DNA of 64,000 nucleotides from an uncultured virus (IMG/VR IMGVR_UViG_3300034378_000239) (taxonomy: Duplodnaviria; Heunggongvirae; Uroviricota; Caudoviricetes): IMG/VR virus record IMGVR_UViG_3300034378_000239; one strand, 5' to 3'. Each line of letters starts with the position of its first letter. The first letter of the stretch is position 1. Of this stretch, positions 22,393 through 55,618 are shown in pieces. Below the pieces are notes generated by a model, which did not search any database, was not told the origin of the DNA, and worked only from the letters and a program-made list of their open reading frames with translations. Position numbers and translations under genes: made by a program.

Positions 22393-23094
22393 CTATCCGC
22401 GACCGCGCCGACGGGCGATTTGGGGCACCCGCCGCGGAGGTACGATCGGCGGAGGAACTCTGGGAGGCTCCATCGGCCGGGGAGCACCCGGCGGCGGGAT
22501 CGGCACGGGGCGCCTGCCCCCAGGTGGCCTCGGAGGCTCCATCGGCCGGGGACCCGCGGGCACGGCCGGAACGCACCCGATGAACCGACCGCGAGCGTCA
22601 CGCGCGGCGCGTGTGCCCGGTGGACAAAGGACCGGAGGCCGCGGCTCATCACTTGGCGGCGTGGGACGCGGCACACCCGGAGGCCTGGGAGCTCCCTTGC
22701 AACCGAGGAAGTTGCCGGCCCAGTCGTAAAGCGGCCTCGTCCCGGGCGGGCAGAGCCTCTGCGCCGCCCCGACGCGGAGCCGAGCGCCCCCGCGACCCAA
22801 GGCGCGCGTTCGTCCACGTACCCGGGCGCCCCCGCTGGGCGTTTTGGGCCTTCGGCCCTCCCCCATGTTGTATCGGACGCATCGCATCATGGCGGTGGCG
22901 TCCTTTGGGTCGCCCATACAAACCTGCTTTCCGGTATCGGGATCGAGGGCGCACGCCCCACCACAGAGTTCGCAAGCTTCGCAGAAGGTCGTTGCCGTCG
23001 GAACCTGTCCGCTCCGCGCGCGCTGGAGTGCCGCGCCGATGCCGTAGCGGTCCCGGCAGTTGGGGTTGTAGTTTCTGCTTCCCATGCTGTACAT
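22393..23094 (-). CDS. Cys/Pro-rich protein with RDRYGIGAALQR motif
   Basis: AAGGAG RBS; N-terminus paralogous to 23541-23777; LCPPGTR x2 and RPMEPPR x2. Confidence 0.7.
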   Translation of the reverse strand: MYSMGSRNYNPNCRDRYGIGAALQRARSGQVPTATTFCEACELCGGACALDPDTGKQVCMGDPKDATAMMRCVRYNMGEGRRPKTPSGGARVRGRTRALGRGGARLRVGAAQRLCPPGTRPLYDWAGNFLGCKGAPRPPGVPRPTPPSDEPRPPVLCPPGTRAARDARGRFIGCVPAVPAGPRPMEPPRPPGGRRPVPIPPPGAPRPMEPPRVPPPIVPPRRVPQIARRRGRG

Positions 23095-23114
23095 GATGAC
23101 TCCTTTTACTGGTT

Positions 23115-23486
23115 TCAGAGTACCTCGAAGGTCCAGTACGTCGGCGCGGTCCCGGCCTTCGTGTAATGAAGCACGACCTCGTAAAACCCCTGCCTGAGGA
23201 AGCGAAGCTCGACGATGCCGGCCTTCGAATCGATGGCGATCTCGTAGTCGGTGCCCTCTTCGGCCGCGCCGCGCTTTTCCTCGCTCACCTGGACGCTTGT
23301 CGGCTTCGGATGCTGGGGCGCGAGGTAGACCTCCTTTTCGCGCCTGGCATCGTACGCCCCGGGCGCGAACGCGCTTTCGGCCGGCGGCGGCAAGGTCGGC
23401 TCGCCGGTCTCCTTCTTTCGGGTCGCCACGTAGGCGATCACGCCTCCGAGCACCATCGCGACGACCAATCCTGCTTGTGCGGCCAT
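23115..23486 (-). CDS. N-terminally membrane-anchored beta-rich protein
   Basis: Hydrophobic N-terminus followed by RKKE; AAGGA RBS. Confidence 0.7.
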   Translation of the reverse strand: MAAQAGLVVAMVLGGVIAYVATRKKETGEPTLPPPAESAFAPGAYDARREKEVYLAPQHPKPTSVQVSEEKRGAAEEGTDYEIAIDSKAGIVELRFLRQGFYEVVLHYTKAGTAPTYWTFEVL

Positions 23487-23540
23487 GTTCGTTGTTCCTT
23501 TCTCGGGATCGGTTCGCTACCTTCGCGGGACTCCATCCAT

Positions 23541-23777
23541 TCAGGGCATGATCACCCGCTGGCGCACGTACCTGCAGTTGTCGTAGCACTCCTGCCACTC
23601 GGGAAAGCCCCAGTGCGGGTACAGCCGGGACATGTTGTGGCACCATGCGGCGCAGCCGCCCTTCGTGCGACCGGCCGGCGCTTGAGGAGCTCGGGCCCGC
23701 GCGCGCTGAAGCGCCGCGCCTATGCCGTAGCGGTCCCGGCAGTTCGGACGGTAGGTTCTTGAGCCGATCGCGTACAT
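23541..23777 (-). CDS. small Cys-rich protein with RDRYGIGAALQR motif
   Basis: TGATG-coupled to the upstream tagged gene. Confidence 0.7.
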   Translation of the reverse strand: MYAIGSRTYRPNCRDRYGIGAALQRARARAPQAPAGRTKGGCAAWCHNMSRLYPHWGFPEWQECYDNCRYVRQRVIMP

Positions 23778-24259
23778 CACACCCTCGTGAGCTTGCTGAG
23801 CTTCTTGAGGTCGCCTCCAGCCGGATTTCGCCTGGCCCGGCGGCGACGTCTCGGTGGGTTCTCGAAAGCACGGTGCCCCCGATGCCGCAGGTTCATGACC
23901 GTGTGCATCGTCGTGCTCCGCTCGGCAAACGGCCGCCAATACTCCGCCTCGATCCATACGGAATCCGCCAGATTCTTCCGAATGAGCTCCTTTGCCGCCT
24001 TTATCGCGCCGGGCAGATCGAGGCCGAAGTCCTGGTAGTCGCCGAGCCACTCGTTTTCCTTGGCCGCATGAAGGAGAAGCCTCACCGAAAGCGCCCTGAT
24101 CCCCTTCTCGGTCTGCGCAGCCTTCTTGAGCTGCGCCCACGACACGGGTTTCCACGCATCCTTGTCGCTGCGATGAAGCTCGAAGTCACGGCGGCTGCCG
24201 ACTTCCTTCCGCTCATCGTGGTGGATGACTACGGGGTCCTCTTTCTTCTTTCTCGCCAT
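23777..24259 (-). CDS. LSKLTRV-tagged cargo protein
   Basis: Starts MARKKK; ends RRNPAGGDLKKLSKLTRV. Confidence 0.8.
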   Translation of the reverse strand: MARKKKEDPVVIHHDERKEVGSRRDFELHRSDKDAWKPVSWAQLKKAAQTEKGIRALSVRLLLHAAKENEWLGDYQDFGLDLPGAIKAAKELIRKNLADSVWIEAEYWRPFAERSTTMHTVMNLRHRGHRAFENPPRRRRRARRNPAGGDLKKLSKLTRV

Positions 24260-24287
24260 CTGGGATCGCTCTTTTGCCTTTTCGACT

Positions 24288-24617
24288 TCAGTCGCCGATG
24301 TGATCGGCGATCATCTCCTTGACCATGGCCTCGCAGGCCTTGCCCGTGGTCCCGTACGCGCCGTAGTGGCCATGGCCCTCGTGGTCCTTGAAATGCCCGC
24401 GCCAGCGGTAGGTGTTCGACTCCTCCATGGACATGTGCGAGCCGTCAGGACGCCGGAGCCCGGGAAGCACCTCGTTTGGACCGCTGTAGTAGCACCAGTA
24501 CGGAAAGCCGCGGTAGCCGCCCTCGATGCCGGCCCACTTCTTCCCGAACGAGAACTTAGAGGCCGCAAACAGCATGATGCCGCCCAAGATCACGAGAGGT
24601 AGCATGGGAGTCGCCAT
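24288..24617 (-). CDS. N-terminally membrane-anchored protein (untagged)
   Basis: Hydrophobic N-terminus; TGATG coupling. Confidence 0.7.
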   Translation of the reverse strand: MATPMLPLVILGGIMLFAASKFSFGKKWAGIEGGYRGFPYWCYYSGPNEVLPGLRRPDGSHMSMEESNTYRWRGHFKDHEGHGHYGAYGTTGKACEAMVKEMIADHIGD

Positions 24618-25270
24618 CACACCCTCGTGAGCTTCGTGAGCGCCCGAAGCCGGGACGGGTTTTCGGCCGGGCGCCGCCGGCCGCGCTCGCGCTTGGGCGC
24701 GCCCTCAGGGCGCCTCTTGACCTGCTTGCCGACCCAGATGAGCGCCTTGCCCTTGGTCTTGAAAGTCTTCTGTCGCTCATCGCCGTCCTCGTCTTCCCAG
24801 GTCACCCGGAACTTCGAAGGCTTGCAGGATCGGATCTCCTCAATCCTGTAACCAGCGATCTCCTCCTCCTCGAAAACCTCGGTTTCGGCCCGAGCGCCAA
24901 GGAGGAAGTTCGGCTTCGGGCCCTTGGGGTTCCCCCTCCCCGTCGCCCAGATGTAGTTCGACAGGATCCTCGAGCCGTACTTCCGCGCGCGCACGTGCTT
25001 ACGGGGCACCACGTTCCCCGCCTTGGTCTTTACGAGCTCGCCCTTCTTGTAGGGCCCCCGCGGCGCCGTGACCTTGACCTCCAAGTGACCCTCGCGCTCG
25101 GGCGACCCGGCCTGGACCCAGCCGTAGCCCCCCGTGATCACCCGAACGACCTTCACCGGCACCAGACCGGAAAACGTGTCCAGGTACGCCAGCGCGCCCG
25201 CGTAGTAGGTCTTCGCCGCCGCCACCCGCTGGCCATGCGTGAGCTCGAACGTGGGGTTTCTCTTCGCCAT
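24617..25270 (-). CDS. LTKLTRV-tagged cargo protein (two NP-delimited modules)
   Basis: MAKRNP...GRGNP...AENPSRLRALTKLTRV. Confidence 0.8.
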   Translation of the reverse strand: MAKRNPTFELTHGQRVAAAKTYYAGALAYLDTFSGLVPVKVVRVITGGYGWVQAGSPEREGHLEVKVTAPRGPYKKGELVKTKAGNVVPRKHVRARKYGSRILSNYIWATGRGNPKGPKPNFLLGARAETEVFEEEEIAGYRIEEIRSCKPSKFRVTWEDEDGDERQKTFKTKGKALIWVGKQVKRRPEGAPKRERGRRRPAENPSRLRALTKLTRV

Positions 25271-25635: not shown

Positions 25636-26399
25636 CACACCCTCGTGAGCTTGCTGAGGCTCTTCAGCCGGCCGGGGTTCTTCTTGGGGTCCCGTTTCGC
25701 AGGGGGAGCGATCCTTTTGCTGGGGTTCTTCCGCTTCTGGCTGTCCCGAATGACCTTCTGCCGGAAGAGCTTGGCCTCGCGTACCGCCTCCGCGCGGGTG
25801 CGACCGCTCGGCCCCCACACAAACGGCTTGGGAAACGGCTTGCCAGCCTCGTCCAGAAACCTCGTCGAATATGAGCCACCGCGCGTGTAGGTGACCTCGA
25901 TCATATACGGCCTCGGGATCAGCTTCGTGGCCTTGGCCCGATGCAGGGTCGTTCCCTTTCCGTCGTCCGGGAACGGCCGCTTGCGCCCCCAACCGACCGG
26001 CGGCCTTCTCGCTGTGTTCCGTTTCATGGTCTTGCCCCTCTTCGGGTTCGAGCGAAGGCTCGAGCTGAGGTCGCTGATCAGTGAGCCGATCACGGCCTTC
26101 ATCGATGACTTGCGCACCATCGCGTAGATGTATCCGTCCACCTTCGCATTCCCGGAGGCCTCATTCTCCGCGCCGTAGAGCACCACGTAGATCTCGCGAG
26201 ACTCCCTCCCCTTGCGCTTCAGGTCACCCACGAACCAAAGCCCGTAATCCCACTGCCGGGGCATCGTCGCGTGGACCTCCCGCACGGTGAAGGTCCCCAC
26301 ACGCGTAAGCCCCTTCTTGAACATGCTGACGACCTTGGCTGGCTTGTATTCGGCCGGCAGGTACACCGCCAGCCGATCTTGTGGTTTGCGTCTTGCCAT
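25635..26399 (-). CDS. LSKLTRV-tagged cargo protein (two modules)
   Basis: MARRKP...RSNP...RKNP...KKNPGRLKSLSKLTRV. Confidence 0.8.
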   Translation of the reverse strand: MARRKPQDRLAVYLPAEYKPAKVVSMFKKGLTRVGTFTVREVHATMPRQWDYGLWFVGDLKRKGRESREIYVVLYGAENEASGNAKVDGYIYAMVRKSSMKAVIGSLISDLSSSLRSNPKRGKTMKRNTARRPPVGWGRKRPFPDDGKGTTLHRAKATKLIPRPYMIEVTYTRGGSYSTRFLDEAGKPFPKPFVWGPSGRTRAEAVREAKLFRQKVIRDSQKRKNPSKRIAPPAKRDPKKNPGRLKSLSKLTRV

Positions 26400-27019
26400 C
26401 ACACCCTCGTGAGCTTGCTGAGTGCCCGGAGCCGCCCCTTGTCGGGGTTCCTCTTGGGGGCCTTGGTCTTGGTCTCGGGGTTGCGGGAGCGGCCCGACTT
26501 TCCACCCGGAGCGATCCCTGGGTTCTCCCGCTCCACGAGCTGCTGGCCGAGCTTCCTCTGGTCGATGGCAAGAGCCGTGCGGCGTCCCTTGGCGGTCAAG
26601 CCGTAGCCCCATGCCGAGCGCTTCAAAAGGCCTCTCTTCGTAAGTTTCCTCGCCTCCCACTTGCCCGGGTCCACCTGTCCGTGCTTGAGGGCAAGCACGA
26701 GCACGTGCTTCTCGTCCAGCGTCAACCTCGTCGCGACCGTCTTCGGGTTGCGTTTGCTACGGGAAGCGATCTTCTTGCGGCGCGCCTTTCTCGAAGCGAG
26801 CTCGCCGCGGAGCCGCTTGAGCGTCTTCTCGATGTCCTTGATCTCCGAGCGGTGAAGTGCCTTCGCAACACGACCATCGGCCTTCTTGAGCATCGCCTTC
26901 TCATCGCGAAGCGCCTTTGCGTGGATCTTGACGAGTTCCTTCAGATCTTCATCTGAAGGACGAAGACCCAGGGTTGCGCGCCAACTCAGGTTCTTCTTGG
27001 GGTCTCGTTTTCGTGCCAT
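26399..27019 (-). CDS. LSKLTRV-tagged cargo protein (coiled coil + winged-helix-like module)
   Basis: KRNP..LTKRGLL....YGLTAKG..ENP..RNP..KRNPDKGRLRALSKLTRV. Confidence 0.8.
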   Translation of the reverse strand: MARKRDPKKNLSWRATLGLRPSDEDLKELVKIHAKALRDEKAMLKKADGRVAKALHRSEIKDIEKTLKRLRGELASRKARRKKIASRSKRNPKTVATRLTLDEKHVLVLALKHGQVDPGKWEARKLTKRGLLKRSAWGYGLTAKGRRTALAIDQRKLGQQLVERENPGIAPGGKSGRSRNPETKTKAPKRNPDKGRLRALSKLTRV

Positions 27020-27308
27020 CACACCCTCGTCAGCTTGCTGAGACTCCGCAGCCGGTCTGCGGCCGGGTTCTTCTTGGGTTTGGACGAGTCCCGTTTGGTG
27101 GGGGCCCAGTATTCGATGCCGCCCTCGGGGCCGTGAACATACGTCCCGGGGCTGAGCGGAACCGTCGGGCTAGGCAGCCCCTTGGGCATGCCGCATCCAT
27201 GGCCGCGGGCACGCACGTACGCTTGACGCGAATGGTCTTGCCGCCGCGCCGATAGGTGTAGCCCTTGCGCGTGTACGCCTTTCTCCTGACCGTGATCTTC
27301 CGTGCCAT
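27019..27308 (-). pseudogene. frame-split chimeric tagged gene
   Basis: MARKITVRRKAYTRKGY... frame differs from the frame carrying MPKGLP...KKNPAADRLRSLSKLTRV; the break lies near the edge of a 92-bp duplication. Confidence 0.65.
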
Positions 27309-27786: not shown

Positions 27787-27790
27787 CGTT

Positions 27791-29405: not shown

Positions 29406-29412
29406 GACCTTT

Positions 29413-30213
29413 CTAGATCCTGCCGTCTGCCTGAAGTGTCGCGCGAAGCACGGCGGCGAAGCCCGGGTAGCGTCGGACGCTCACGCCGCGCAGATGAAGC
29501 TTTTGATCCACCCCGAACCCCTTGGTCTCGCGGATCGCCTCCATGAAACGCTCGTGGATCGCCTTGCGCGTCGGATTCGATAGCGGCTTTTTGGCCAGCG
29601 TGTGGGTGTTCATGCCGGCGCGAGCGCGAGCCCAGTTGACGGCGCCCCACTTGGTGCGCAGCCGGTAGACGAGATCGGCCGTGAACGCGGCAGCGAACGG
29701 GACATCGAACACCCGGGCCGGATCCATGTCGCGCCCGACCTTGTCGTGGGTCGAAAGCGCGGTCACGGGCATGAGCCCCTGCGGGCCACCGGTGTACGCC
29801 CAACGCTTCGAGAGCCGCGAGCCCTCGCACGGCTCGGGACGCCAGGGGTTATCCAAAAAGCGGGTCTCGTAGTTGACCTTGTAGTCGCAAAGAAGACCGA
29901 GGGCCCGTTTCGCCTCCCGCGGGTCATCGTTGATCGCACCGGGGATCCCCCGGCTCTCGGTGTGGGCCGCGGCTATGAGAAAGTCACGAAGGCCCGGGAT
30001 CCGGGCGGCGCGCTCGGCCGCCTCGGCCGAGCGGATGATCCTCTGCCACTCCTCGTCGATCGAAAGCGGCGGAAACGAGGCCGCCCGAAAGACCTCCTCG
30101 GGCAGATCCCCAGGACGTGCGCCGCCCTCGTCCTCCGGTCCGAACAGGGTCTTGCGAGCACCGAGTACGAGCGTTCCTGCGAGGGCGAAGGCGGGCACTA
30201 CCCAGGGGGCCAA
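29413..30213 (-). CDS. lytic transglycosylase/lysozyme-like protein with N-terminal membrane anchor
   Basis: IAAAHTESRG..GA and GGPQGLMPVTA resemble SLT motifs I and II. Confidence 0.7.
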   Translation of the reverse strand: MAPWVVPAFALAGTLVLGARKTLFGPEDEGGARPGDLPEEVFRAASFPPLSIDEEWQRIIRSAEAAERAARIPGLRDFLIAAAHTESRGIPGAINDDPREAKRALGLLCDYKVNYETRFLDNPWRPEPCEGSRLSKRWAYTGGPQGLMPVTALSTHDKVGRDMDPARVFDVPFAAAFTADLVYRLRTKWGAVNWARARAGMNTHTLAKKPLSNPTRKAIHERFMEAIRETKGFGVDQKLHLRGVSVRRYPGFAAVLRATLQADGRI

Positions 30214-31399: not shown

Positions 31400-32326
31400 C
31401 TAGCCGTGGCGTGCGAGGTAGTCCGAGTAGGTGAGGCCGAGGCCCTCGTCGAGCGAGACCTCGGGTACCCAGCCGAGCGCGCGCATGCGCGTCGAGTCGG
31501 TGACCTTGCGCGGCGTGCCATCGAGCTCGCCTGAAAAGCCGATCTCTCCGTCAAAACCCGTCAAATTCGCCACTTTTGCCGCGAGGTCGGAGATGCTCAG
31601 CTCGTCGCCCGAGCCGACGTTCACCGGACCGAGGCGGCTATAGCGCTCCATGGCGAGCACACATGCCAAGGCGACGTCATCGACGTAGGTGAGCTCCCGG
31701 AGCGCGGCGCCGGTGCCCCAAAGCGTCACGCGGCCGCGGCCCTTCTTTCGTGCATGATGGAACCTGCGAATGAGCGCAGGGATCACGTGCGAGCTCTCGG
31801 CATCGTAGGTGTCGCCCGGACCGTAGAGATTCGAGGGCTGGACCGAGATGAAGTTCGCACCGTGCTGGCGGCGATACGCATCACAGAGCTCGATGGCCGC
31901 AATCTTCGCGATCGCGTACGCGCGATTCGTGTCCTCGAGCGGCCCGGATAGAAGCGCCTCCTCTTTCATGGGCTGGTCGCAAAGCCGCGGGTAAATGCAC
32001 GAGCTCCCGAGCATGAGGAGCTTCTTGGTCCCGAAGAGGTGCGCGCACTCGATGACGTTCGAGGCGATCTGGAGGTTTTTGTGCAGGAACTCGGCCGGGC
32101 GCGTCTTGTTCGCGAGGATCCCCCCGACCACGCCAGCGGCCACGAAGACCAGGGCGGGCCTCTCCTCGTCGAACCATTCCATGGTCTGGTGCTGGTCGGT
32201 GAGGTCGAGCGCGGCGTGGCCCCTCCCGATGATGTCTTTGTACCCGAGCTCGCGCAGCTTGCGACAGATCGCAGAGCCGACCATGCCGGTATGGCCAGCG
32301 ACGTAGACCTTGACATCACGATCCAT
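31400..32326 (-). CDS. fcl: GDP-L-fucose synthase
   Basis: VAGHTGMVGSAI, VGGILAN, LGSSCIYP, YAIAK, NLYGPGD, SHVIPALI, WGTG..LRE. Confidence 0.95.
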   Translation of the reverse strand: MDRDVKVYVAGHTGMVGSAICRKLRELGYKDIIGRGHAALDLTDQHQTMEWFDEERPALVFVAAGVVGGILANKTRPAEFLHKNLQIASNVIECAHLFGTKKLLMLGSSCIYPRLCDQPMKEEALLSGPLEDTNRAYAIAKIAAIELCDAYRRQHGANFISVQPSNLYGPGDTYDAESSHVIPALIRRFHHARKKGRGRVTLWGTGAALRELTYVDDVALACVLAMERYSRLGPVNVGSGDELSISDLAAKVANLTGFDGEIGFSGELDGTPRKVTDSTRMRALGWVPEVSLDEGLGLTYSDYLARHG

Positions 32327-32557
32327 TCCGGGCTCCTTTCCTTGGGTCCTTGCCGAGCCCCACCCGGACGACGGCCTCGCCCACTCTTCGCACGAGTTCG
32401 TCGCGTGGCATCCCGCGTTCGCTCCAACCAAGCACGATTCGTTCGTTCGCCGTGAGCCCCGGTGGCGGAAAGACCGTGACGTAAAGGGCGCCCTCTTCCT
32501 CGATCGCCCATACGTGGACCGGATACGGACAAAGCCCGTCGGGAACGAGGGCGGCCC

Positions 32558-33589: not shown

Positions 33590-33609
33590 GGTACACTCCG
33601 CAAAGCCTC

Positions 33610-40903: not shown

Positions 40904-40919
40904 CGCTGGCTTTTGCGCC

Positions 40920-41540: not shown

Positions 41541-41543
41541 GGG

Positions 41544-43605: not shown

Positions 43606-43636
43606 GATGAGAGAAACGACGCGTGCGCCCCGCGGT

Positions 43637-45307: not shown

Positions 45308-45345
45308 CCGCTCCTCCTTGTGCCACCAGCGGCTGCGAAGGCCCA

Positions 45346-45744
45346 CTAACCCGCCTTCGCTTCCTCGGCCTCCTGTTCGTCGCTCGCTTCCTCTTTTCCG
45401 ACCGCAGCATGAAGCGCTCCGAGCACCTTGACCGACACTCCCTCCATCCAAAGCGCTGCCACGCACGTCTCGCACAGCGCGAATTCGTCGGTATCGAGCT
45501 CGATCCCCAGATCCGAGCTCTCGAGGCGCGCACAGAGCCGGCTTCTCTTGAGGAGCACGTCCGGCGGCTCGGTCTGCCTGCGACCGCCGCCGCCCTGGAT
45601 CAGCTCGCCGAGCTGCGCCTCGGAAAGCGCCTGCAGAAGAAACGAGCGCAGGTTGCGGGGGCGGTTGTTCTGACCGGGTCGATCGTCGATGCCGACCGGG
45701 TCGCCGTTCCATTGCTTGGGAATGTCCGTTAGCCGAAGCTGCAT
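45346..45744 (-). CDS. hypothetical protein
   Basis: GGAGAG RBS; protein-like composition. Confidence 0.55.
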   Translation of the reverse strand: MQLRLTDIPKQWNGDPVGIDDRPGQNNRPRNLRSFLLQALSEAQLGELIQGGGGRRQTEPPDVLLKRSRLCARLESSDLGIELDTDEFALCETCVAALWMEGVSVKVLGALHAAVGKEEASDEQEAEEAKAG

Positions 45745-45818
45745 CTCTCCGATTCCTCCGTGGGGGATCCGGAGTGTCCCAAAAAAACGGCCCGGGTGTC
45801 AACGAAGGCGCGGCGTCG

Positions 45819-46338: not shown

Positions 46339-46917
46339 CTAGGTGCTCGTGTCGAACTTCCACTGCAGGGTGACGTACACGTTCGATGGTGCGTTTGTGG
46401 GGTCTACCGAGACCGCGAGGCGCTGGCCGGCGGAAAAAGTCGCGCCCGAGAACACGAACTTGTACGAGGTATCATCAAGAAGCCCGGTCTCGGTCTTGCT
46501 CGCGGTTGGGGTTGTGTTGCCGTCAAGGTGGAGCCCAATCGTGGTGTTGCCGGGGTTGCCGGAAAGGACGTGGTAGTACGCCGCGACCAGCTCCCCGTCG
46601 TGAGGAGCGATGAACTCGTGGTCGCGCCCGATGCTCCCTCCCCACTCGCTAGCACCAGTACCGATCCATCCGACGTAGTGCTTGGTAGAACCAGGAGCGC
46701 TGTCGAAGTGGACCGAGTACCAATACGCGTCCGTTACCGAGGGGTTGACGAGGTCGTGATCGACGCCGGCGTCATCGGTAAACTGCGCTGTGCTCGGCGC
46801 ATCGTCCTTGACCCAGTATTTTCCAAAGCCAGCGCCGGGCGCACCACCGGGCACAGAAGACGCCTCGGTGAACTGTACGGCGCCTGTCACGTAGATGATG
46901 TGGAATCGTTCGGCCAT
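46339..46917 (-). CDS. beta-rich virion/spike-like protein
   Basis: TAATG-coupled to the fibre gene; ends TFSAGQRLAVSV....VYVTLQW. Confidence 0.65.
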   Translation of the reverse strand: MAERFHIIYVTGAVQFTEASSVPGGAPGAGFGKYWVKDDAPSTAQFTDDAGVDHDLVNPSVTDAYWYSVHFDSAPGSTKHYVGWIGTGASEWGGSIGRDHEFIAPHDGELVAAYYHVLSGNPGNTTIGLHLDGNTTPTASKTETGLLDDTSYKFVFSGATFSAGQRLAVSVDPTNAPSNVYVTLQWKFDTST

Positions 46918-49331
46918 TACTCGATCTCCACGCGCCAGTCGGATGCAGTCTCTTTGATCACGGTGTACGTGGTCGGAGCACCGACCATCGTGAAAGGTGC
47001 GGCCCCCCCGTTCACGGTATCACCGCCGGTCGTGTCGAATCTCACGCTGCCAGCACGGGCGACGCTGATCCGGATCCTGTATTTCCAACCGATCGCGCCG
47101 GTCGGCGCCGTGAGGTCGTTGTTCCCGGCGGCCGGCTCCTCGACGATGATGTACTCCTCGTTATCGAGCGCGGAAGAGGCGTCGCCGACATTGAGGACGC
47201 CGACGACGTGGTGGCCCGAATACGTCCGCTGGAAAAAGGAGGAACTCGTACCGAGGTCCCGCCCCATGGTGCCTTCGGGCCTAAACGCGAGGACCTCAAA
47301 GTGATAGCGCGGGTTGTTATTCGAATAATAGATGGCTTTGTCGCCGGAGCAGTCCAGGTAAAAGAAGTTGTCGAGGGCCCCCGAGACGTTGGTTGCTCCG
47401 ATCCTGGCGAACCGCTGGGTGCAAACCGTGATGCCATGGTTATCGGTGGCGAGGTCCCCGAACACGCCGTCGTCCGCGTTGGCGTTCGCATCCGTAATCG
47501 CCGCCGCGCCAGCCTTGAGCCGTGCCGGCATGAGCCAGTCGCCCGTAGCGCCGTCGTACGTCGTGGTGTTGGGGCCGTTGACCGTGAACGTGATGTCACC
47601 GTCGGTCCCACCACCTGTGCGGTCGCCAGCAGTGAGCGCGATGTTTCCGCCGTTGGCGTTTCCTCCGGCGCCCGCGTCACCGGCGTTTATCGCCACGCTG
47701 CCGCCCGCGCCACCAGTCCCCGCGGCCGCGTCCCCTCCGGGCCGCGCGGTTAGGGTCAGGTTTCCGCCCGCGCCGCCAATGGCATCGGCCGGCGTATCTC
47801 CGCCATCTCCGGATTCGATGAGGACCGAACCGCCCGCGCCGCCGTTGGCGTTCGTGGAGTTGCCTCCGTCACCTGCAATGGCCGAAAGTGCACCGCCCGC
47901 GCCGCCCGCGAACACGCCCGCCGTGTTGTTGCCCCCGTCGCCCGCGGTTATGGCCGTCGCGCCCCCGCTTCCCCCGATGGAGTTGTTCGACGTGGCGCCG
48001 TCTCCGGCGTGCACGTCCATCGCGCCCCCGTTTCCAGCCTGCGTGGCGCCTGCGCCGGCGAGGAGCTGTGTCGCGCCCCCGTTTCCGCCCGTGGTGCTAC
48101 CCACACCGCCGTTTCCGGCAACCAGATCGAGAGGACCGCCGTTGCCGCCGGTGACGGCGCCTCCGCCACCGCCAGTACCGCTCGCGATGTCCACTCCCCC
48201 CCCCGTCCCGCCGACGCTCGCGCCACCGCCCGTGCTTGCTCCACCGACACCCGCAGCTACGGTACATGTTCCGCCACCTCCGCCGGTCGCACCGGCGAAG
48301 CTCGTCGCGCCACCCGCGCCGCAATCGAGGTTGGCGTCGCTACCGACGCCCCCGTTCCCCGTGGTGCTTGCTCCGCCGGCTACGCCAGTGAGATCGATGT
48401 CGCCCGCGTTTCCACCCGCGCCCGGCGTCCCGATCGTGAGCGTCAACGTGCCGCTTGCTGCCCCCGCATTCGCGCTCGGGCCGGTCGTGAGCGTGATCGT
48501 GCCTCCGCCTATGGCGCCGCCAGCACCAGCGGCCCCAGCGTCGATCGCAACCGCGCCAGCTGCACCGCCTGTCGCGCCGCTTCCTCCAGCGCCCGCGGCG
48601 AGCGTCAGCGCACCACCTGCTCCTCCTGTGCTTGCACCACCTCCCGTGGCGTTTCCACCGCCCAGCGCCCCGATTTGGACCCCACCTCCCGCCCCGCCTG
48701 TTCCACCTGCCGCAGACGAGGCCCCCCCGGTCCCGGAAGTGAGGGTAATCCCTCCTCCGGCCCCGCCCAGCGCAGTCCCAGCCCCGCCCGCGCCGCAAGC
48801 GACCTGGAACGGGCCGCTTGCTCCCCCTGTCGCGCCCGTGCCCCCTGCTCCCGAAACGAACTGGACACCGCCTCCTTGACCTCCCGTGCTGGCGCCCCCC
48901 CCGGTCGAGTTGCCTCCGGCGCCGGGTGCCACGAGCGCGTTCCCCCCGCGACCACCGGTGGACCCCGCGTTCGATGTCGCGCCCCCGTTCCCGGTGATGA
49001 GAAGATAGTCGCTGCCGGTACCGCCGTTTGCAGTCGTGCTCGCGCCGCCGGCCGCACCGGTCAGCACGAGATCCCCGGCGTTCGAATCCGTTCCGGTCGC
49101 CCCGATGGTGAGCGTGAGGTTTCCGCTCGACGAGCCCGCATTCGTGGTGGCGCCCGACACCAGCGGCAACACGCCACCAGCGCCCGTCGTGCTGTCCTCG
49201 CCGCGGATCGTGTCTCCCGAAGTGATGACGGGATCCGTGCCGCCGGACACGTTCCCGTTGTTGAGGGTCTGCGCCCAAGTCTGGTTTCCGAGCGGGATCC
49301 CGGAGACGTGTTGTATTCCGCAGCCGCCCAT
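46917..49331 (-). CDS. Gly-rich repetitive fibre/spike protein
   Basis: Many GG.V.I.AG.GG repeats; non-repetitive C-terminal head. Confidence 0.8.
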   Translation of the reverse strand: MGGCGIQHVSGIPLGNQTWAQTLNNGNVSGGTDPVITSGDTIRGEDSTTGAGGVLPLVSGATTNAGSSSGNLTLTIGATGTDSNAGDLVLTGAAGGASTTANGGTGSDYLLITGNGGATSNAGSTGGRGGNALVAPGAGGNSTGGGASTGGQGGGVQFVSGAGGTGATGGASGPFQVACGAGGAGTALGGAGGGITLTSGTGGASSAAGGTGGAGGGVQIGALGGGNATGGGASTGGAGGALTLAAGAGGSGATGGAAGAVAIDAGAAGAGGAIGGGTITLTTGPSANAGAASGTLTLTIGTPGAGGNAGDIDLTGVAGGASTTGNGGVGSDANLDCGAGGATSFAGATGGGGGTCTVAAGVGGASTGGGASVGGTGGGVDIASGTGGGGGAVTGGNGGPLDLVAGNGGVGSTTGGNGGATQLLAGAGATQAGNGGAMDVHAGDGATSNNSIGGSGGATAITAGDGGNNTAGVFAGGAGGALSAIAGDGGNSTNANGGAGGSVLIESGDGGDTPADAIGGAGGNLTLTARPGGDAAAGTGGAGGSVAINAGDAGAGGNANGGNIALTAGDRTGGGTDGDITFTVNGPNTTTYDGATGDWLMPARLKAGAAAITDANANADDGVFGDLATDNHGITVCTQRFARIGATNVSGALDNFFYLDCSGDKAIYYSNNNPRYHFEVLAFRPEGTMGRDLGTSSSFFQRTYSGHHVVGVLNVGDASSALDNEEYIIVEEPAAGNNDLTAPTGAIGWKYRIRISVARAGSVRFDTTGGDTVNGGAAPFTMVGAPTTYTVIKETASDWRVEIE

Positions 49332-50180: not shown

Positions 50181-50915
50181 CTAGGGGCCCACTTCTCCGC
50201 CCGGTGTTCTTCTGGCGCCGTGAAGGCCGCCCCTTCGGCCCGGCGTGCCCCGAAGCTCTCCCTCCCTCAGTTCCGGGCCGAGCTCGCGCTCGAGCTCGGC
50301 GAAGAGAGCCTCACCGGCGGCGTCTTGGGTCGCAAAGTCCCTCTTGCCGCCGCCGCCCGCGGGCGAGCGGTAGACGTAAAAGAAGCTTCCGGCCGGAGTC
50401 TCGTAGATCCGCCACTCGGCCAGAGCCTTTCGCCCCTCGTACAGATCCGTATCCACGACGTGGTTCGTGGTCGTGATCCCCCAGTCGTCCTTGCGAATGG
50501 TCGGATCATCGGGCGGCTCGGGCTCGGGCTCGTCTTCGGGGATCTCGGAAAGCGGCTCGCCGGTTTCGGGATGGACCTCGGGCCCGAGCTCGTGCTGAAG
50601 CTCGGCCCAGAGCGCCTCGCCGGCCTCGTCCTGCTCGGGAAAGCCACTGCCCCCGCCGTCCTTTTCGGCCGTACGCCACTCGAACAGGAAGTAGCCCTCG
50701 GGGTCCTCGTAGATCCGCCAGCGCGCCTCACCGAGCTGCCCGACATAGGTCCCGGAGTCCGCGAGCGTGTTGTTCTCGGAGATCCCCCAGTCGTCCTCGC
50801 CGGTGACATCTTCGTCTTCGACCCTGACGTCGCGTTTCTTCTTGGTCATCGCGATCGCCGCGATCGCGCCGAGACCGACGAGCAGAAAGAAAGCTGGTCC
50901 CATGACGGAGCTCAC
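50181..50915 (-). CDS. membrane-anchored protein with a tandem-duplicated ~73-aa domain
   Basis: N-terminal TM + KKKR; DDWGI...WRIYE.P.G.F...GGG...F..QD.AGEAL.AEL..ELGPE twice. Confidence 0.75.
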   Translation of the reverse strand: MSSVMGPAFFLLVGLGAIAAIAMTKKKRDVRVEDEDVTGEDDWGISENNTLADSGTYVGQLGEARWRIYEDPEGYFLFEWRTAEKDGGGSGFPEQDEAGEALWAELQHELGPEVHPETGEPLSEIPEDEPEPEPPDDPTIRKDDWGITTTNHVVDTDLYEGRKALAEWRIYETPAGSFFYVYRSPAGGGGKRDFATQDAAGEALFAELERELGPELREGELRGTPGRRGGLHGARRTPGGEVGP

Positions 50916-50919
50916 CTTT

Positions 50920-51315
50920 CTACGGGGACGGGGTGTAGCGTACGAGGACCTCGCGGCCCTCGGGGCGACCGAGCAGCGTGAACTGCAGCCTGACCATCCA
51001 CGGCCCGGGCTGATCGGTGGCGACCAGCGTGTACGTCACCACGCCCCGGTCGGCGATCACCCCGATGTCGAGCATGTCCGGGAGCGGATACGGGCACCCT
51101 TCCTGCGGACAGCGCACCAGGAGGCCCCACTGCTCGCGCACCCCGGAAAGCACGACCTCGACCGCATCCCCCGCCCGGAGGCTGACCTCTTGCTCGGTCG
51201 TGCGCAGGTCCTCGTAGTGGATCTGGTGGGTCTTCGGCCCCTTGTCCTCTTTCTTCGCCCCCCGAAGAACGAGGAAGGCCACGGCTGCGATTGCAAAGAG
51301 TGTGATTGGTTCCAT
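50920..51315 (-). CDS. N-terminally membrane-anchored beta-rich protein
   Basis: MEPITLFAIAAVAFLVLRGAKK. Confidence 0.7.
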   Translation of the reverse strand: MEPITLFAIAAVAFLVLRGAKKEDKGPKTHQIHYEDLRTTEQEVSLRAGDAVEVVLSGVREQWGLLVRCPQEGCPYPLPDMLDIGVIADRGVVTYTLVATDQPGPWMVRLQFTLLGRPEGREVLVRYTPSP

Positions 51316-51346
51316 CTTGTCTTTCTCCGTAGTTCTCCGAGGCGTC

Positions 51347-51775
51347 CTAGCCTCCGGGCACGCGCCACGTCATCGAGCACTCGCGTACGAGCTTTCTCCC
51401 TTTTTTGACCCAGCGACACCTCGAGCCGTGCGCGCACTCCCAGAAGCCGCCTGGAAAAATGCAGCAAAGGCGTCCCCTGTAGTAGAAGCAGTAACTCCCC
51501 GACCTCGGCCGCCTGTCTCCACCGAGGCCCGTGGCCGCGGCGGGCGAGGCCCCCGCTCGCGCCGAGGTCATGAGCCCGATCCGGTAGCGCTGAAGCGCGG
51601 CACCAAGACCGTGCCGGTCGCGCCCGTTCATCCTCGCGCCCGTACGCGCGAGCACGAACGGATCGCGAATGTCCGAGACGCACTTTTCCGCCACGCACAC
51701 CTGATGCGGCGCGCAATCGCGCGAGACTCTGCACGCCTTGCCCCTTCCCAGGCTCTTCGCTCTTGCTCGCTTCAT
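51347..51775 (-). CDS. Cys-rich protein with RDRHGLGAALQR motif
   Basis: EB-like C.VSRDC....VC....C module; motif shared with the 22.4-23.8 kb genes. Confidence 0.65.
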   Translation of the reverse strand: MKRARAKSLGRGKACRVSRDCAPHQVCVAEKCVSDIRDPFVLARTGARMNGRDRHGLGAALQRYRIGLMTSARAGASPAAATGLGGDRRPRSGSYCFYYRGRLCCIFPGGFWECAHGSRCRWVKKGRKLVRECSMTWRVPGG

Positions 51776-51784
51776 GATTTCTCC

Positions 51785-52669
51785 TCACGAAAGCACGGCC
51801 AGCACCTCGGGGGGCGGCTCGGTCTTGGGCCGTCCGTCGGCCCAGTTCCCATCGGGGCACACGAGCGTCCCCTCCATGACGCGCGCGACCGGAAACCAGA
51901 AAAGCCCGTAGCTGTTCGCGCCGGGAACGCCCAGACTGCTCCCCGCCTTGGTGTAATCGATCGTACGGTCGGGAAAGCGCCCCGCGTACATCTCGGCGAG
52001 CGCGTTTTCGTGCCGGGGCAAAAAGGCCTTCGACACGACCTGAAGGCCCTCGTCGGTCTGGACCGCGGTGTAGCGCGGAAACAGCTTGTTTTCGGGATCC
52101 CAGGGCGTGCCGTAGTACGTGAGGTTCCATTCGGATCCGGTCACACATCGGATCGCCGGCGCATTGAGGGGGTCGCCGCTTCGCGTTCCGAGCGCGCTCC
52201 TCACCAGCGCGGTGATGTTGTCGCCCTTTATGATCTGATAGAACGTGCCCCAGCGGGGGCGCCTCGGCTTGGCCACGTACGGCTTTATGACCTCGCCGGG
52301 GCTTTTGGGCTCGGGGCACGCGCCCTCGGGTAGCGCATCGAGGCGCTCGCGCACGCGGTCCTCGAGCTCGTCCCAGATGCACTGGACCGCCTCGTTCGCG
52401 CCCATCGGCGGCACCCAGGGCGGCGACTTCGGCCAGCCGATCGCGGTGCCGTCGGGAAGCTTGGGGTAAACGACGTCGGCGGTGGCCGCGGTCAGCTCGC
52501 CGATCGTGCAGATCCCGGCCTCGATGCCCGCGCTTATCGCCTGATCGATCTCCTCCTCGAGCCACTCGAACGGCGGACAGATCTCTCCTGGCGGCGCCTT
52601 CTTTTTCTTGCCCAGAAGCAGCATCAAAAGGATTGTGCCAATCGGCAGAGCTTCAGGTCCAATGGGCAT
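51785..52669 (-). CDS. membrane-anchored protein with LysM-like motif
   Basis: ILLMLLLGKKKK; FYQIIKGDNITALV. Confidence 0.65.
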   Translation of the reverse strand: MPIGPEALPIGTILLMLLLGKKKKAPPGEICPPFEWLEEEIDQAISAGIEAGICTIGELTAATADVVYPKLPDGTAIGWPKSPPWVPPMGANEAVQCIWDELEDRVRERLDALPEGACPEPKSPGEVIKPYVAKPRRPRWGTFYQIIKGDNITALVRSALGTRSGDPLNAPAIRCVTGSEWNLTYYGTPWDPENKLFPRYTAVQTDEGLQVVSKAFLPRHENALAEMYAGRFPDRTIDYTKAGSSLGVPGANSYGLFWFPVARVMEGTLVCPDGNWADGRPKTEPPPEVLAVLS

Positions 52670-52708
52670 CGTCTTTTCCTTTCCCTTTATTCCTCTTGCT
52701 CGTTTTGC

Positions 52709-53131
52709 TCATGAGAGCCACGCTCCCGCCTCCGGATCGAACACGCGACCCGTGCTCGTGTGGACGGTCGTGTGGAAGATCCCCCGGTCATTGGTGGTGA
52801 CCTCGACGCTTGCGCCCGGATCGCCGTACTTCTCGCGCAAAAGCGCACAAAGAGCGGACGCGATGTCGATGCACGTGCCTTGCCGGGACGCGAGGAGCCT
52901 GACGATCCCCTTGACCGGCTGGCAGCCGCGCACTCCCTTTGTCGACCGACAGGAAGGCGGCGGAATGTAGCGCACACCATCGAGGTCGGCCGCGAAAAAT
53001 CCCGGATCGCCGCGGATCTCGAGCACGTTCATTTGCACGAGCATCTCGCACAGGATCGTCAAAATCGCGACCTCGTGCTCGTCGTCGTCGTCGAGCGCGG
53101 TGTAGCGCAGCCTGATCTCGCGCGTGGGCAT
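52709..53131 (-). CDS. transglutaminase-like cysteine protease candidate
   Basis: GTCIDIASALCA...FHTTV....GRVFDP (Cys-His-Asp order); TGATG coupling. Confidence 0.7.
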   Translation of the reverse strand: MPTREIRLRYTALDDDDEHEVAILTILCEMLVQMNVLEIRGDPGFFAADLDGVRYIPPPSCRSTKGVRGCQPVKGIVRLLASRQGTCIDIASALCALLREKYGDPGASVEVTTNDRGIFHTTVHTSTGRVFDPEAGAWLS

Positions 53132-54048
53132 CAGATCTCGAGCTCCCACACGAGCGTCACGACGCGGTCGTTTTGGTTGTCGGCAGCGGGATTGAGGCAG
53201 ACCACCCGCGCCGGCCCCGGAACCTCGATGTGGTCGACGCGGCGGCCCGCGGGAAGCGTGATCTCTCCGATGTTCGCGGCCGCGATGTCGGCCATCGTGC
53301 GGAAGAACGGCGTGAGCAGGTTTCCGGCGTTAGTCTGATACATGGTCAGCCGGACCGCGCCGGCGGGTACGGGTACGTGCGTGTTCACGTTTCCCGCAGC
53401 CAGCAGATACACGTACGTGTCCGTGAGGATCTGGTCTCCGGGCGGACAGGGCGCAGGCGCCAGCCAGGCGCCCACGAACGTGTCGAGCACGAGGCCGCTC
53501 TGGAGGCTTCCGGCCGACTGCTGCGAGTTCGGGTGGACCACGAACCCGGTCGGCGCCAGCACGTCCAGGGTGACCTTGCATGCGACCACCCCGAACCTCA
53601 CGCCCGCGCCGATGTCGAACACGCGCTCGGTGCCCCCGGCCGCCCCGTAGAAACGCACCCGTCCCTTCAGGTGGGTGTGATGCTGCGCCGTGCTCAGCTG
53701 GGTCTCGTTCTGCGCAGTCAGGTTCTCACCGTTTCGCGCGTTCTCACGCGCCCACATGGAAAGCTCCCACTGGAGGGCGATGTTCGGGTCGAGGCCCATT
53801 CGCGCGAGCTCGGGCGAGCTCAAGATCAGCCTGTCGGTCATCGTGGGGGTCGCGGCCGAGCCTATGAGCCCCCACGAGCTGAAAATTTGAAAGTCGTTCT
53901 CCCAGCGTTGGCACGGGATCTTGGTCGGAAACGGCCCGGGAAAGTCGCAGTGCTCCGCGGGCAGCTCGGCGACCTCGGCCGCGCGCTCGGGCAGCCTCGC
54001 CAGCGCCGGATACGTTCTGCCGCTACCTCTCGAGCTCGGGTACCTCAT
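53131..54048 (-). CDS. beta-rich virion protein, jelly-roll capsid/penton candidate
   Basis: ~305 aa of beta-strand patterns, no TM; next to the protease candidate. Confidence 0.55.
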   Translation of the reverse strand: MRYPSSRGSGRTYPALARLPERAAEVAELPAEHCDFPGPFPTKIPCQRWENDFQIFSSWGLIGSAATPTMTDRLILSSPELARMGLDPNIALQWELSMWARENARNGENLTAQNETQLSTAQHHTHLKGRVRFYGAAGGTERVFDIGAGVRFGVVACKVTLDVLAPTGFVVHPNSQQSAGSLQSGLVLDTFVGAWLAPAPCPPGDQILTDTYVYLLAAGNVNTHVPVPAGAVRLTMYQTNAGNLLTPFFRTMADIAAANIGEITLPAGRRVDHIEVPGPARVVCLNPAADNQNDRVVTLVWELEI

Positions 54049-54055
54049 CGTCCAA

Positions 54056-54805
54056 TCAGTCCTTTCCGGGCCATCTGCAGACCTGGTGCTCGCCGGGCCC
54101 CATCGGTCCGCCGGTGCGGCCCCAGTGGTCCTCGCGCTGGTAGGCGCGCGAGATCTCACCGTCGTGGATCACCGTGTCCAAAAGCGCACCGATGTCCACG
54201 ATCGGGACGCGCCGCTCGGGCGCTTGGCGATCCCAGTAGCGGTGCACGATCGTGTTTGCGCCCGGGCCAGCGGCGACCAGGATCGGGCGCCTTTCCTCGA
54301 GCAGCGAGCTCACGATTTGGTCCTCGTGCCACCCGGGATTCACCGCGATGTTCGGGGGGACCTCGTGGTCGGCCTCGGGGCCGCAGGTCACGAGCGCCGA
54401 CCCGTTTCTGTAGATCGATGAAAAGCCCGCAAACGCCGCATCGTAGTTGATCCAGCCGAAGAGCTCCGCGAAGGTCTGGCGACAAAGCGGGATCTTCATG
54501 CGCTCGACGCAGAACTCGCGGCCGAGCCAGTCGCAGCGGCGGCAGTTCACACCGATGCAGTAGCCTTCGAGGTCGGTCTCGAGCGCGGCCAAGAGCGCTG
54601 CGCGAAACCTCGGAACCAGGGCCTTGACATCCCAGCTTTCGTACTCACCTTCGACCCGCTTTTGATACTCGCGCTCGGGCGGCGGGAGCCTCAGCATCGA
54701 GGCCTCACCATCGCCGTAGCGCACGAGCGCAAACGGCTCCATGCGCTCGATGCCGTCGAGCACCGCTTTGAGGTCCGTCCTCATTTCCTGGGCAAAGGTG
54801 ATCAT
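54056..54805 (-). CDS. GT-D-fold (DUF1792-like) glycosyltransferase
   Basis: FALVRYGDGE; LVAAGP.A; IVDIGALLD. Confidence 0.8.
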   Translation of the reverse strand: MITFAQEMRTDLKAVLDGIERMEPFALVRYGDGEASMLRLPPPEREYQKRVEGEYESWDVKALVPRFRAALLAALETDLEGYCIGVNCRRCDWLGREFCVERMKIPLCRQTFAELFGWINYDAAFAGFSSIYRNGSALVTCGPEADHEVPPNIAVNPGWHEDQIVSSLLEERRPILVAAGPGANTIVHRYWDRQAPERRVPIVDIGALLDTVIHDGEISRAYQREDHWGRTGGPMGPGEHQVCRWPGKD

Positions 54806-54845
54806 CCGGTCCGAAAAACATGGTGAGGAGAAAAGCAAGCAAGAG

Positions 54846-54878
54846 GAAAAGCCCGGCGCCCCCAAGGGGCGCCGGGCA
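54846..54878 (-). terminator. rho-independent terminator after the capsid candidate
   Basis: GCCCGGCGCCCC-TTG-GGGGCGCCGGGC-TTTT on the minus strand. Confidence 0.85.
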
Positions 54879-54886
54879 CCGTGGCG

Positions 54887-55618
54887 CTAGACGAGCAGAG
54901 GCACGCCAGCGATCCCCCACAGGTTCACGAATACGTGGACCCTGACCGTGTTCGGGTTGAAGAACGTCATGGTCAGCAGCTGGTTGTTCTGCGACCCGAA
55001 CTTCCTCCAGTCTACGCACTCGATCTCTTTCTCGAATCCGTAGATCAGAGTCCAGACGCCGAAGGACTGGACGGTCTGCGACGCACGCCGCATGTTGGGC
55101 TCCTGGCCGGACCGGGAGTCCTGCAGAAGCACCATGAGCGGCGTGCCCGGGTTGATGATCAGGGTGGGCGTGGTCGTGCTGACCTCGAACGCGATGACGG
55201 CAATGTAGTACGGGATGAAGAAGTCCGCGTCACCGGCATCGACCGCGAGGTTTCCGAACGCGTTGCTTGCGATCCCCGCGGTCCCGAGCGAGTTGATCCC
55301 GATCACGTGGCAGTCGCAACGTGGCGGGATCGGCTTGCAGATCTGCCCCGGGCGCTGGGTGGTCAGACGACCGTGGCCCGCGTCCGTGGGAGAGTCCCCC
55401 CAGTTCGGGGTGCACGGATCGCCCTCACCGGTGCGCGCGCGAACGCGCTGCATCGAGCTCAGGCCGCCCTCCTGCCACGACCCGACGTTGTAGCGGCCGC
55501 CGTAGCGTGCCCTGTACCCCCTCGCCCCGATCCTGTACTCGTCGAGCTGTTTTTCGACGAGGCGCAGATTCTCCTTCATGAACGCTCTGCGCTGTGCGAT
55601 TCCGTCAAAAGGAGGCAT
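54887..55618 (-). CDS. candidate major capsid protein (single jelly-roll-like) with N-terminal extension
   Basis: Strong AAGGAGGGG RBS, own terminator, beta-rich C-terminal ~140 aa ending LTMTFFN....VHVFVNLWG. Confidence 0.55.
   Translation of the reverse strand: MPPFDGIAQRRAFMKENLRLVEKQLDEYRIGARGYRARYGGRYNVGSWQEGGLSSMQRVRARTGEGDPCTPNWGDSPTDAGHGRLTTQRPGQICKPIPPRCDCHVIGINSLGTAGIASNAFGNLAVDAGDADFFIPYYIAVIAFEVSTTTPTLIINPGTPLMVLLQDSRSGQEPNMRRASQTVQSFGVWTLIYGFEKEIECVDWRKFGSQNNQLLTMTFFNPNTVRVHVFVNLWGIAGVPLLV

Follow-up and report, generated by a model that had tools for sequence, protein, structure and literature searches.

A conserved peptide module in Cys-rich proteins of an uncultured virus: a possible docking arm for particle assembly

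The DNA analysed here, which we call the window, is a 64 kb stretch (60-70% GC across 2-kb windows) of a 76,985-base contig from an uncultured virus (IMG/VR record IMGVR_UViG_3300034378_000239), and our subject is a short peptide, RDR[YH]G[IL]GAALQR, that recurs in three basic, Cys-rich proteins encoded by genes that we designate A, B and C. We find that the peptide is conserved as a protein element throughout a small paralogous family, where its copies stand at N-termini or between domains, ahead of variable linkers, and that a looser form may be carried by the disordered arm of a shell-like protein (the capsid candidate) encoded in the same window. The reading that we favour, at a rough probability of 0.4, is that the peptide is a particle-assembly docking arm, perhaps trimmed afterwards.

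Six-frame translation of the window gave three exact matches to the peptide, all on the minus strand (Table 1), which is far beyond chance. Nine of the 12 motif codons differ between A and C (seven synonymously, two non-synonymously), seven between B and C (five and two) and three between A and B (three and none). Because the codon differences between copies are mostly synonymous, the constraint acts at the protein level, and the peptide is not a DNA repeat. A hidden Markov model (HMM) of the surrounding module found only A, B and C among the 495 six-frame open reading frames (ORFs) of the window.

Outside the window, the 11-residue core, back-translated into a DNA pattern, matched no stretch in IMG/VR and three in 596 Gb of reference genomes, which we read as chance matches. 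Two of these three are in frames with a nearby stop codon (in L002 the stop is upstream of the match), and the third lies inside an unrelated actinomycete glycosyltransferase (L004, 10001-10032, minus strand), which reads D-R-H-G-V-G-A-A-L-Q-R by chance; the core alone, outside its context, is therefore not diagnostic. Among the matches listed in a scan of metagenome DNA for the same core there was only L001, an out-of-frame chance match in tryptophan-synthase-like genes. Full-text searches of the literature outside subscription journals and the supplements on bioRxiv turned up neither the motif nor a virus of this kind.

The first 27 residues, M-Y-x-[MI]-G-S-R-x-Y-x-P-N-C-R-D-R-Y-G-I-G-A-A-L-Q-R-A-R, are common to A and B, which differ from there on; BLASTP aligns the two with 16 of 20 residues identical (E = 1e-9 in a single comparison). 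C carries the peptide internally. Judged by their sequences, A, B and C are paralogues of one small family. We counted ten members of this family, the three in the window and seven from metagenomes, and the block D-R-[YH]-G-[ILV]-G-A-A-L-Q-R-[AY]-R is kept in every one of them while the rest of the protein diverges, with whole-protein identities of 36-49% between the A, B and C types. The common layout is the module, then a linker that varies in both length and sequence, then a Cys-rich domain, the last of which cannot be aligned between types. The sequence-only reading from which we started had described the shared peptide and its placement in the three proteins as we find them, and had taken it for a conserved functional element, which the invariance of the block bears out. 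It had also proposed that the motif marks a second class of proteins; what we recover is a single small family of paralogues, to which the capsid arm may be a further addition, and not a set of unrelated proteins. Generic forms of such a class motif are not enriched in the window's proteins either: G-[ILVMF]-G occurs 36 times against 29.4 +/- 5.4 in shuffled sequences (41 of 300 shuffles reach 36), and R-x-x-[ILV]-G-[AS] seven times against 4.0 +/- 2.1 (56 of 500 reach 7).

The three genes are arranged differently around the module. In A, which begins with an AAGGAG Shine-Dalgarno site 7 nt upstream of the ATG, the N-terminal module is followed by a Cys-rich domain, a basic linker holding a second, degenerate motif copy, two CPPGTR...GC loops and a Pro-rich tail. 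The second copy is kept in all three A-type proteins, those of the window and of its homologues P0006 (72% over 110 amino acids) and P0007 (50% over 142), and in P0006 it reads V-G-A-A-F-Q-R; BLASTP aligned residues 89-109 of A to the motif region of C, with an E of 0.18 in a single comparison. B consists of the module, a variable linker and two predicted helices, each with a C-x3-C; its ATG, with GAGG ahead of it, overlaps the TGA stop of an upstream gene whose product ends in the tail LSKLTRV, and it has three orthologues at 62-73% identity. C, with an AGGAGA site 6 nt upstream of its start, runs from a four-Cys, knot-like N-terminal segment through the module (residues 40-68) and an Ala/Gly linker to a C-terminal Cys-rich domain, and its orthologues are P0005 (79% identity over 114 amino acids) and P0080 (full-length, from a cluster look-up). 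Third-position GC is 0.74-0.84 in the three genes. In Pfam, PHROGs and NCBIfam the only matches to any of the three were weak Pfam Cys-knot matches to C (E 0.014-0.06), all below the cut-off.

The module of about 27 residues, of which the peptide would be the core, is predicted to form a hairpin, Y-x-[IM]-G-S-R-x-Y, a loop and a short helix within R-D-R-Y-G-I-G-A-A-L-Q-R-A-R. In the AlphaFold2 model of B, whose mean predicted local distance difference test score (pLDDT) is 60.5, strands are placed at residues 2-4 and 7-9 and a helix at 19-28, spanning I-G-A-A-L-Q-R-A-R, ahead of the two C-x3-C helices; read from the sequence, G18, A22 and A26 fall on one face of the 19-28 helix. Two other roles for an element of this kind were considered and rejected. 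The arrangement of a leader, a variable Cys-rich core and a PAPS-reductase-like gene downstream of A recalls a ribosomally synthesised and post-translationally modified peptide, and this was dropped because the module of C is internal, A is 233 residues long and has the module twice, and the capsid arm shares the module. A Tat, Sec, lipoprotein or pilin signal was set aside on reading the sequences, which have no hydrophobic core and no twin arginine in register.

Searched against 1.84 billion representative proteins, the family profile gave five matches at E <= 0.001: B's own cluster, P0005 (C-type), P0006 and P0007 (both A-type), and P0008, a marginal match to a repeat protein. P0008 and P0081 are marine transcript proteins of 298 and 318 residues that look eukaryotic, with an N-terminal M-G-x-C and a C-a-a-X-like C-terminal end. 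They carry about six tandem repeats of S-R-D-E-F-G-[LFPS]-G-A-T-S-Q-R-T-R-G, resembling the viral R-D-R-Y-G-I-G-A-A-L-Q-R-A-R; P0008 scored E 6.3e-4 over the whole library through four matched stretches and has no Pfam match. The likeness may be due to chance or convergence.

We then compared the module with the arm of the capsid candidate, to which the sequence-only reading had linked it. Both Y-R-I-G-A and Y-N-V-G-S are indeed present in that arm, and in an alignment of the capsid family the arm, although variable, still keeps [FY]-x-[IV]-G-A, repeats of R-Y and a nearly invariant V-G; a related element of the form aromatic/Arg-x-[IV]-G-[AS] is retained there. Scored without gaps against 62,525 20-mers, residues 2-21 of B found the capsid arm, at 48, as the best match outside A and B, ahead of the paralogue C (41) and the next background match (30). 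Smith-Waterman comparison with 42 capsid homologues gave z > 2 over shuffled targets in 24 and over shuffled queries in 15; the summed score of 1432, compared with 1062 +/- 82 for the shuffled queries, was reached by none of 300 permutations. The alignments match D-R-Y-G-I-G-A-A of the family to [DE]-R-Y-G-V-G-A-A of distant capsid homologues. Exact RYGVG occurs in 14 of 64 capsid homologues, and 33 of the 64 have one or more [YF]-x-[IVLM]-G.

A number of results weigh against this relation, and with it against a docking arm modelled on the shell protein. With hhalign, the motif family and the capsid family matched at a probability of 1.35% over eight columns. The HMM of the family module placed the capsid ORF only 32nd of the 495 ORFs (E 9.5), and in the reverse direction an HMM built from 23 capsid arms placed B second at E 0.2 and A outside the first 12, so the profile comparisons are not significant. 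The arms of 31 of the 64 capsid homologues have no [YF]-x-[IVLM]-G, 27 of the 42 homologues compared with shuffled queries have z < 2, and the window's own arm copy is a degenerate R-Y-N-V-G-S without A-A-L-Q-R. A doublet pattern by which A, B and the capsid protein alone are picked from 81 proteins (0.04 expected) was devised post hoc. Taking both sides together, we consider that the capsid arm is probably, though by no means securely, related to the module of A and B.

Another way to view the block is as a signature of the family and nothing else, that is, an ordinary structural element that three paralogues have inherited, such as a helix packed against the Cys-rich domain or a helper with metal or disulfides, with the resemblance to the capsid arm arising from low complexity rich in Arg, Tyr and Gly. 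The paralogy of A, B and C, the outcome of the profile-profile and HMM tests and the very small number of relatives in the protein library all favour such a view. However, the block is split from Cys domains that do not align between types by linkers of varying length and sequence, it lies mid-protein in C and occurs twice in A, and the composition-controlled permutation of the query order was passed. We regard a pure family signature as unlikely.

For the capsid candidate itself we found 64 homologues, whose contigs reach 77 kb in length, with one of 84 kb for a cluster member. Its start is backed by an AAGGAGG site and by the starts of the homologues, the original gene call (P0082, 303 amino acids) beginning further upstream; a gene-free stretch of 176 bases with this strong site precedes the gene. 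In the AlphaFold2 model (42-row alignment, mean pLDDT 63.9) a helix at residues 7-27 is followed by a region without confident structure (25-101) and a beta-sandwich (104-238), and the protein is thus predicted to be laid out in a jelly-roll-like manner, as a coat protein with a disordered N-terminal arm. VIA-align matched the sandwich to EhV-201 with Z 7.6 (root-mean-square deviation 3.0 over 108 residues), to PBCV-1 with 7.2, STMV with 7.1, HCIV-1 with 7.0 and P23-77 VP17 and VP16 with 5.5. Foldseek found no match in the PDB at E <= 0.001, and in BFVD seven matches at that threshold, led by coat proteins of luteo-, tombus- and circo-like viruses with TM scores of about 0.3. A capsid role is therefore a matter of fold likeness of middling strength, every Z, including the best, being under the tool's caution line of 8, and this, together with the low confidence of the models of B and of the capsid candidate, also counts against the docking arm. 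Like known single-jelly-roll capsid proteins with N-terminal arms (P23-77 VP16/VP17, HCIV-1, HHIV-2 and the coat proteins of small RNA and single-stranded DNA viruses), the candidate is predicted to have a beta-sandwich, here of about 140 residues, after a disordered basic arm. P23-77 has a genome of 17 kb; the virus studied here differs from viruses of that type in its genome of about 77 kb, in showing no sequence likeness to known viruses in INPHARED, PLSDB or IMG/VR, where the capsid family had no match, and in having no packaging ATPase recognised in the window.

Two further features of the capsid family were noted. An invariant cluster, G-H-G-R ... C-x-P-x-P-P-[RK]-C-[DE]-C-H-V, stands just before the beta-sandwich and could be a metal or disulfide site. 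Paralogue pairs were found on contigs of equal size (P0036/P0050, 75566 bases; P0032/P0045, 59226; P0046/P0072, 76973), and some relatives seem to carry two copies, one with and one without an R-Y-G-V-G arm; the window has one copy only.

In the docking reading, the module would mark paralogous basic Cys-rich proteins encoded in blocks of particle genes, and a looser form, [FY]-x-[IV]-G-A ... R-Y repeats ... R-Y-G-V-G-A, would close the disordered arm of the shell-like protein. As the particle forms, the module would attach to a site that all its bearers use, and the small proteins would be built in by mimicking the shell protein's own arm, with the flexible linker behind the module tethering a variable Cys-rich cargo domain; the tag might then be trimmed by a neighbouring Cys-His-Asp enzyme, in the manner of the capsid targeting sequence (CTS) of phage T4. 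We favour this account because of the long invariant block, the prediction of a hairpin plus helix, the helix face of small residues, the tether-like linkers and the related element on the jelly-roll arm. The positions of the copies are those where a docking site, or a processing site, would be expected.

The T4 prohead protease, a serine-type enzyme, removes the CTS, which is strictly N-terminal, and T4 is a tailed phage with an HK97-type head. The CTS of the internal proteins IPI-IPIII is a short conserved peptide that loads diverse small proteins into the assembling head (PMC3012670). It is the closest precedent for docking. Here too a short peptide is common to small proteins, though these belong to one paralogous family. 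Unlike the CTS, the present tag is also internal, occurs twice in one protein and has a probable relative on a shell-like protein. The virus differs from T4 as well, in that no tailed-phage genes are seen in the 64 kb and the enzyme next to the shell-like genes has a Cys-His-Asp transglutaminase fold.

This enzyme, the 52709-53131 product, had been suggested by the sequence-only reading to be an adenain-type maturation protease, and that assignment did not survive. Its only Pfam match (hmmscan, E <= 1) is Transglut_core at E 0.012, with 16.4 bits falling below the cut-off of 23; no Peptidase_C93 or adenain model in Pfam matched it, NCBIfam gave nothing, and the PDB held no sequence match at E <= 10. 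Its look-alikes in the ESM Atlas are small viral protein clusters, some of them with PF01841 (in 13-100% of members; TM 0.73 to one). The protein and its five homologues, which are 45-84% identical to it, make an alignment of six sequences, in all of which Cys87, His120 and Asp132 are invariant. These homologues lie on contigs equal in size and source to those of C-type genes (3260 and 20433 bases) and of capsid homologues (4737 and 11894 bases); because it is size and source that match, a conserved neighbourhood of the enzyme with C-type and capsid genes is suggested rather than proven.

Adenain (AVP) is a cysteine protease of the adenovirus virion; its sites, Gly-containing motifs with the consensus (M/I/L)XGX-G or (M/I/L)XGG-X, lie in several of the minor capsid proteins and core proteins (PMC3386624). 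Small basic proteins are among its substrates, which is a point of likeness. However, the consensus matches no motif copy in A, B, C, the capsid candidate or the seven homologues, its only three regex matches in these proteins all falling in Cys-rich domains, and Pfam recognised no protease of clan CE (adenain/Ulp-like) among the roughly 100 ORFs of the window.

Among characterised enzymes of this fold, the nearest for which a site is defined are LapG and DvhG, bacterial transglutaminase-like Cys-His-Asp proteases whose adhesin site is an invariant A-A near a helix, LapG cutting LapA at a di-alanine (PMC10990149). The family motif likewise has an invariant G-A-A, in all ten members and in a predicted helix. 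The viral protein differs in being 140 residues long, in lacking a Peptidase_C93 match and in having, as read from its sequence, no signal peptide or membrane helix. LapG is active in the periplasm, where its substrate is a giant adhesin, and is controlled by cyclic di-GMP.

The likeness to LapG bears on a less favoured alternative, a corrected form of the sequence-only reading, that the peptide is purely a maturation cut site at or near whose G-A-A the Cys-His-Asp enzyme cuts. It would take short leaders off A and B, divide A and C at their domain borders and cut the arm from the capsid protein. The conserved enzyme in the same gene block, the apparent conservation of that neighbourhood in relatives and the placement of the copies at N-termini or domain borders before variable linkers are all as such a site would have it. 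On the other hand, 13 invariant residues exceed what known cut sites require, which argues for a tag that does more than mark a simple cut; the first [IM]-G-S of A and B occupies residues 3-6, so near the start that hardly anything would be cut off; and the window's degenerate capsid arm has no A-A and hence no G-A-A. The enzyme's sub-threshold match and its failure to match the protease models also count against this alternative, as do the absence of any enrichment of generic G-[ILVMF]-G and the fact that small proteins of this fold are common in viruses without a known role. Structure prediction of a complex between the enzyme (six rows) and residues 1-36 of the B family (nine rows) gave a score of 0.01 against a mark of 0.32, which speaks neither for nor against cutting. 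We judge cutting alone to be possible but doubtful.

It is also conceivable, though considerably less probable than any of the above, that the Arg/Tyr-rich module is a basic anchoring arm that binds the surface of the viral membrane, or the DNA, directly, much as small jelly-roll coat proteins bind nucleic acid through their Arg-rich arms, and that neither a protein partner nor cutting is involved. All three proteins are strongly basic (pI 10.0-11.3), the arms of the capsid family have R-Y repeats, and many neighbouring genes encode proteins with one N-terminal membrane helix. The coat proteins of luteo-, tombus- and circo-like viruses, which are the best fold matches of the capsid candidate in BFVD, carry basic N-terminal arms. 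Binding driven by charge, however, does not need an invariant G-I-G-A-A-L-Q.

Docking and cutting could also be combined. The R-Y-G-[IV]-G-A-A arm on shell and Cys-rich proteins would dock first and then be cut at G-A-A by a LapG-like Cys-His-Asp maturation protease, in a new lineage of large, tailless jelly-roll viruses of bacteria. Such a conjunction is unlikely as a whole; if true, bacterial viruses would have their own equivalent of adenovirus and poxvirus maturation, based on an unrelated protease fold.

A shared peptide tag on particle proteins is of an already known kind; what is new is its sequence, its probable placement on shell-like as well as accessory proteins and the fold of the adjoining enzyme. 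Peptide tags that direct proteins to particles or are trimmed there are known from T4 and adenovirus, and we know of none from bacterial viruses of the tailless jelly-roll kind. In the present case all known members of the family have the 13-residue tag in fixed form, and a probably related element is found on a shell-like protein of a virus group for which IMG/VR, INPHARED and PLSDB gave no relative. Should the tag serve for docking or cutting, it would offer a handle for loading foreign proteins into such particles and a directly testable entry to the assembly of these uncultured viruses; if it is a family signature only, the result is a modest annotation of three genes.

Table 1. Positions in the window of the peptide, the proteins that carry it and associated features.
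Feature	Position	Strand	Details
Gene A	22393-23094	-	233 aa, pI 11.3, 11 Cys; from ORF, translation and composition
Module of A, residues 1-27	23014-23094	-	N-terminal; holds invariant block RDRYGIGAALQR at 23020-23055
Motif copy in A	23020-23055	-	regex on six frames
Second, degenerate copy in A, residues 97-111	22762-22806	-	R-A-L-G-R-G-G-A-R-L-R-V-G-A-A; between first Cys domain and C-terminal part
Gene B	23541-23777	-	78 aa, pI 10.0; module 23697-23777; third-position GC 0.84
Motif copy in B	23703-23738	-	regex on six frames
Gene C	51347-51775	-	142 aa, pI 10.8, 10 Cys; from ORF
Module of C	51572-51658	-	motif at residues 52-63, then Y-R-I-G-L at 51572-51586
Motif copy in C	51587-51622	-	regex on six frames
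Cys-His-Asp protein, transglutaminase fold	52709-53131	-	140 aa; G-T-C-I-D at 52865-52879, His 120, D-P 132-133
Second shell candidate	53131-54045	-	304 aa, beta-rich; between Cys-His-Asp gene and capsid candidate
Capsid candidate	54887-55618	-	243 aa; predicted helix 7-27, disordered arm to about residue 100, beta-sandwich 104-238
Capsid arm segment Y-R-I-G-A...R-Y-N-V-G-S, residues 28-47	55478-55537	-	Y-R-I-G-A (28-32) at 55523-55537; R-Y-N-V-G-S (42-47) at 55478-55495
Capsid-family invariant cluster	55307-55378	-	G-H-G-R ... C-H-V
Proteins with N-terminal hydrophobic helix, then Lys/Arg cluster	23115-23486, 24288-24620, 29413-30213, 50181-50915, 50920-51315, 51785-52669	-	
LSKLTRV tail	16762-16782	+	
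LSKLTRV tails	23780-23800, 24617-24634, 25638-25658, 26402-26422, 27022-27042	-	

The genes around the peptide give some indication of the kind of virus involved. A, B and C are interspersed with genes for small proteins whose N-terminus is a single membrane helix with Lys residues behind it. C belongs to a block of genes that all run in one direction, together with those for the two shell-like proteins, the Cys-His-Asp protein and an 804-residue Gly-rich protein. A single hydrophobic helix with a Lys/Arg cluster is typical of particle-membrane proteins in membrane-containing phages. Scans of the window with Pfam, PHROGs and NCBIfam recognised no terminase, portal, HK97-type capsid or tail families, and the Pfam and PHROGs scans no packaging ATPase in these 64 kb, about 13 kb of the contig lying outside. 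Because no tail or HK97 genes were recognised and both membrane-helix proteins and shell-like genes are present, a tailless, membrane-containing virus fits, and the source is probably an undescribed bacterial virus of this type, of about 77 kb. The recognised genes include two integrases, a RusA-like resolvase, DUF5131, a primase-polymerase/helicase and, directly downstream of A, the 3'-phosphoadenosine-5'-phosphosulphate (PAPS)-reductase-like gene.

The second shell candidate had no family match, its ESM Atlas look-alikes scored at most 0.85, and it had no relative in IMG/VR; tblastn with both shell candidates and the enzyme found no match in INPHARED or PLSDB. Its ORF runs upstream to 54159, overlapping 54056-54865, so that its start is uncertain.

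Several further observations concern the rest of the window. The 29413-30213 product has, by eye, a lytic transglycosylase-like motif, with no family match. A block of about 14 kb (31400-45802) is devoted to sugar nucleotides and glycosylation, with a GDP-mannose 4,6-dehydratase, epimerases, a DegT aminotransferase, a GNAT acetyltransferase, methyltransferases and several glycosyltransferases; a GT4 protein of 838 residues is encoded at 17236-19752, and the share given to glycosylation is unusually large for a mobile genome of about 77 kb. Six ORFs, the LSKLTRV class of the sequence-only reading, share a basic C-terminal tail, ...K-K-N-P...L-[RK]-x-L-[ST]-K-L-T-R-V, directly before the stop codon; five of the six form a single run in one direction, and translation of B is coupled to that of one of the six. 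The 804-residue protein (46917-49331, minus strand) consists mostly of repeats rich in Gly, Ala, Thr and Ser with a non-repetitive C-terminal part and no family match, and may be a fibre or spike.

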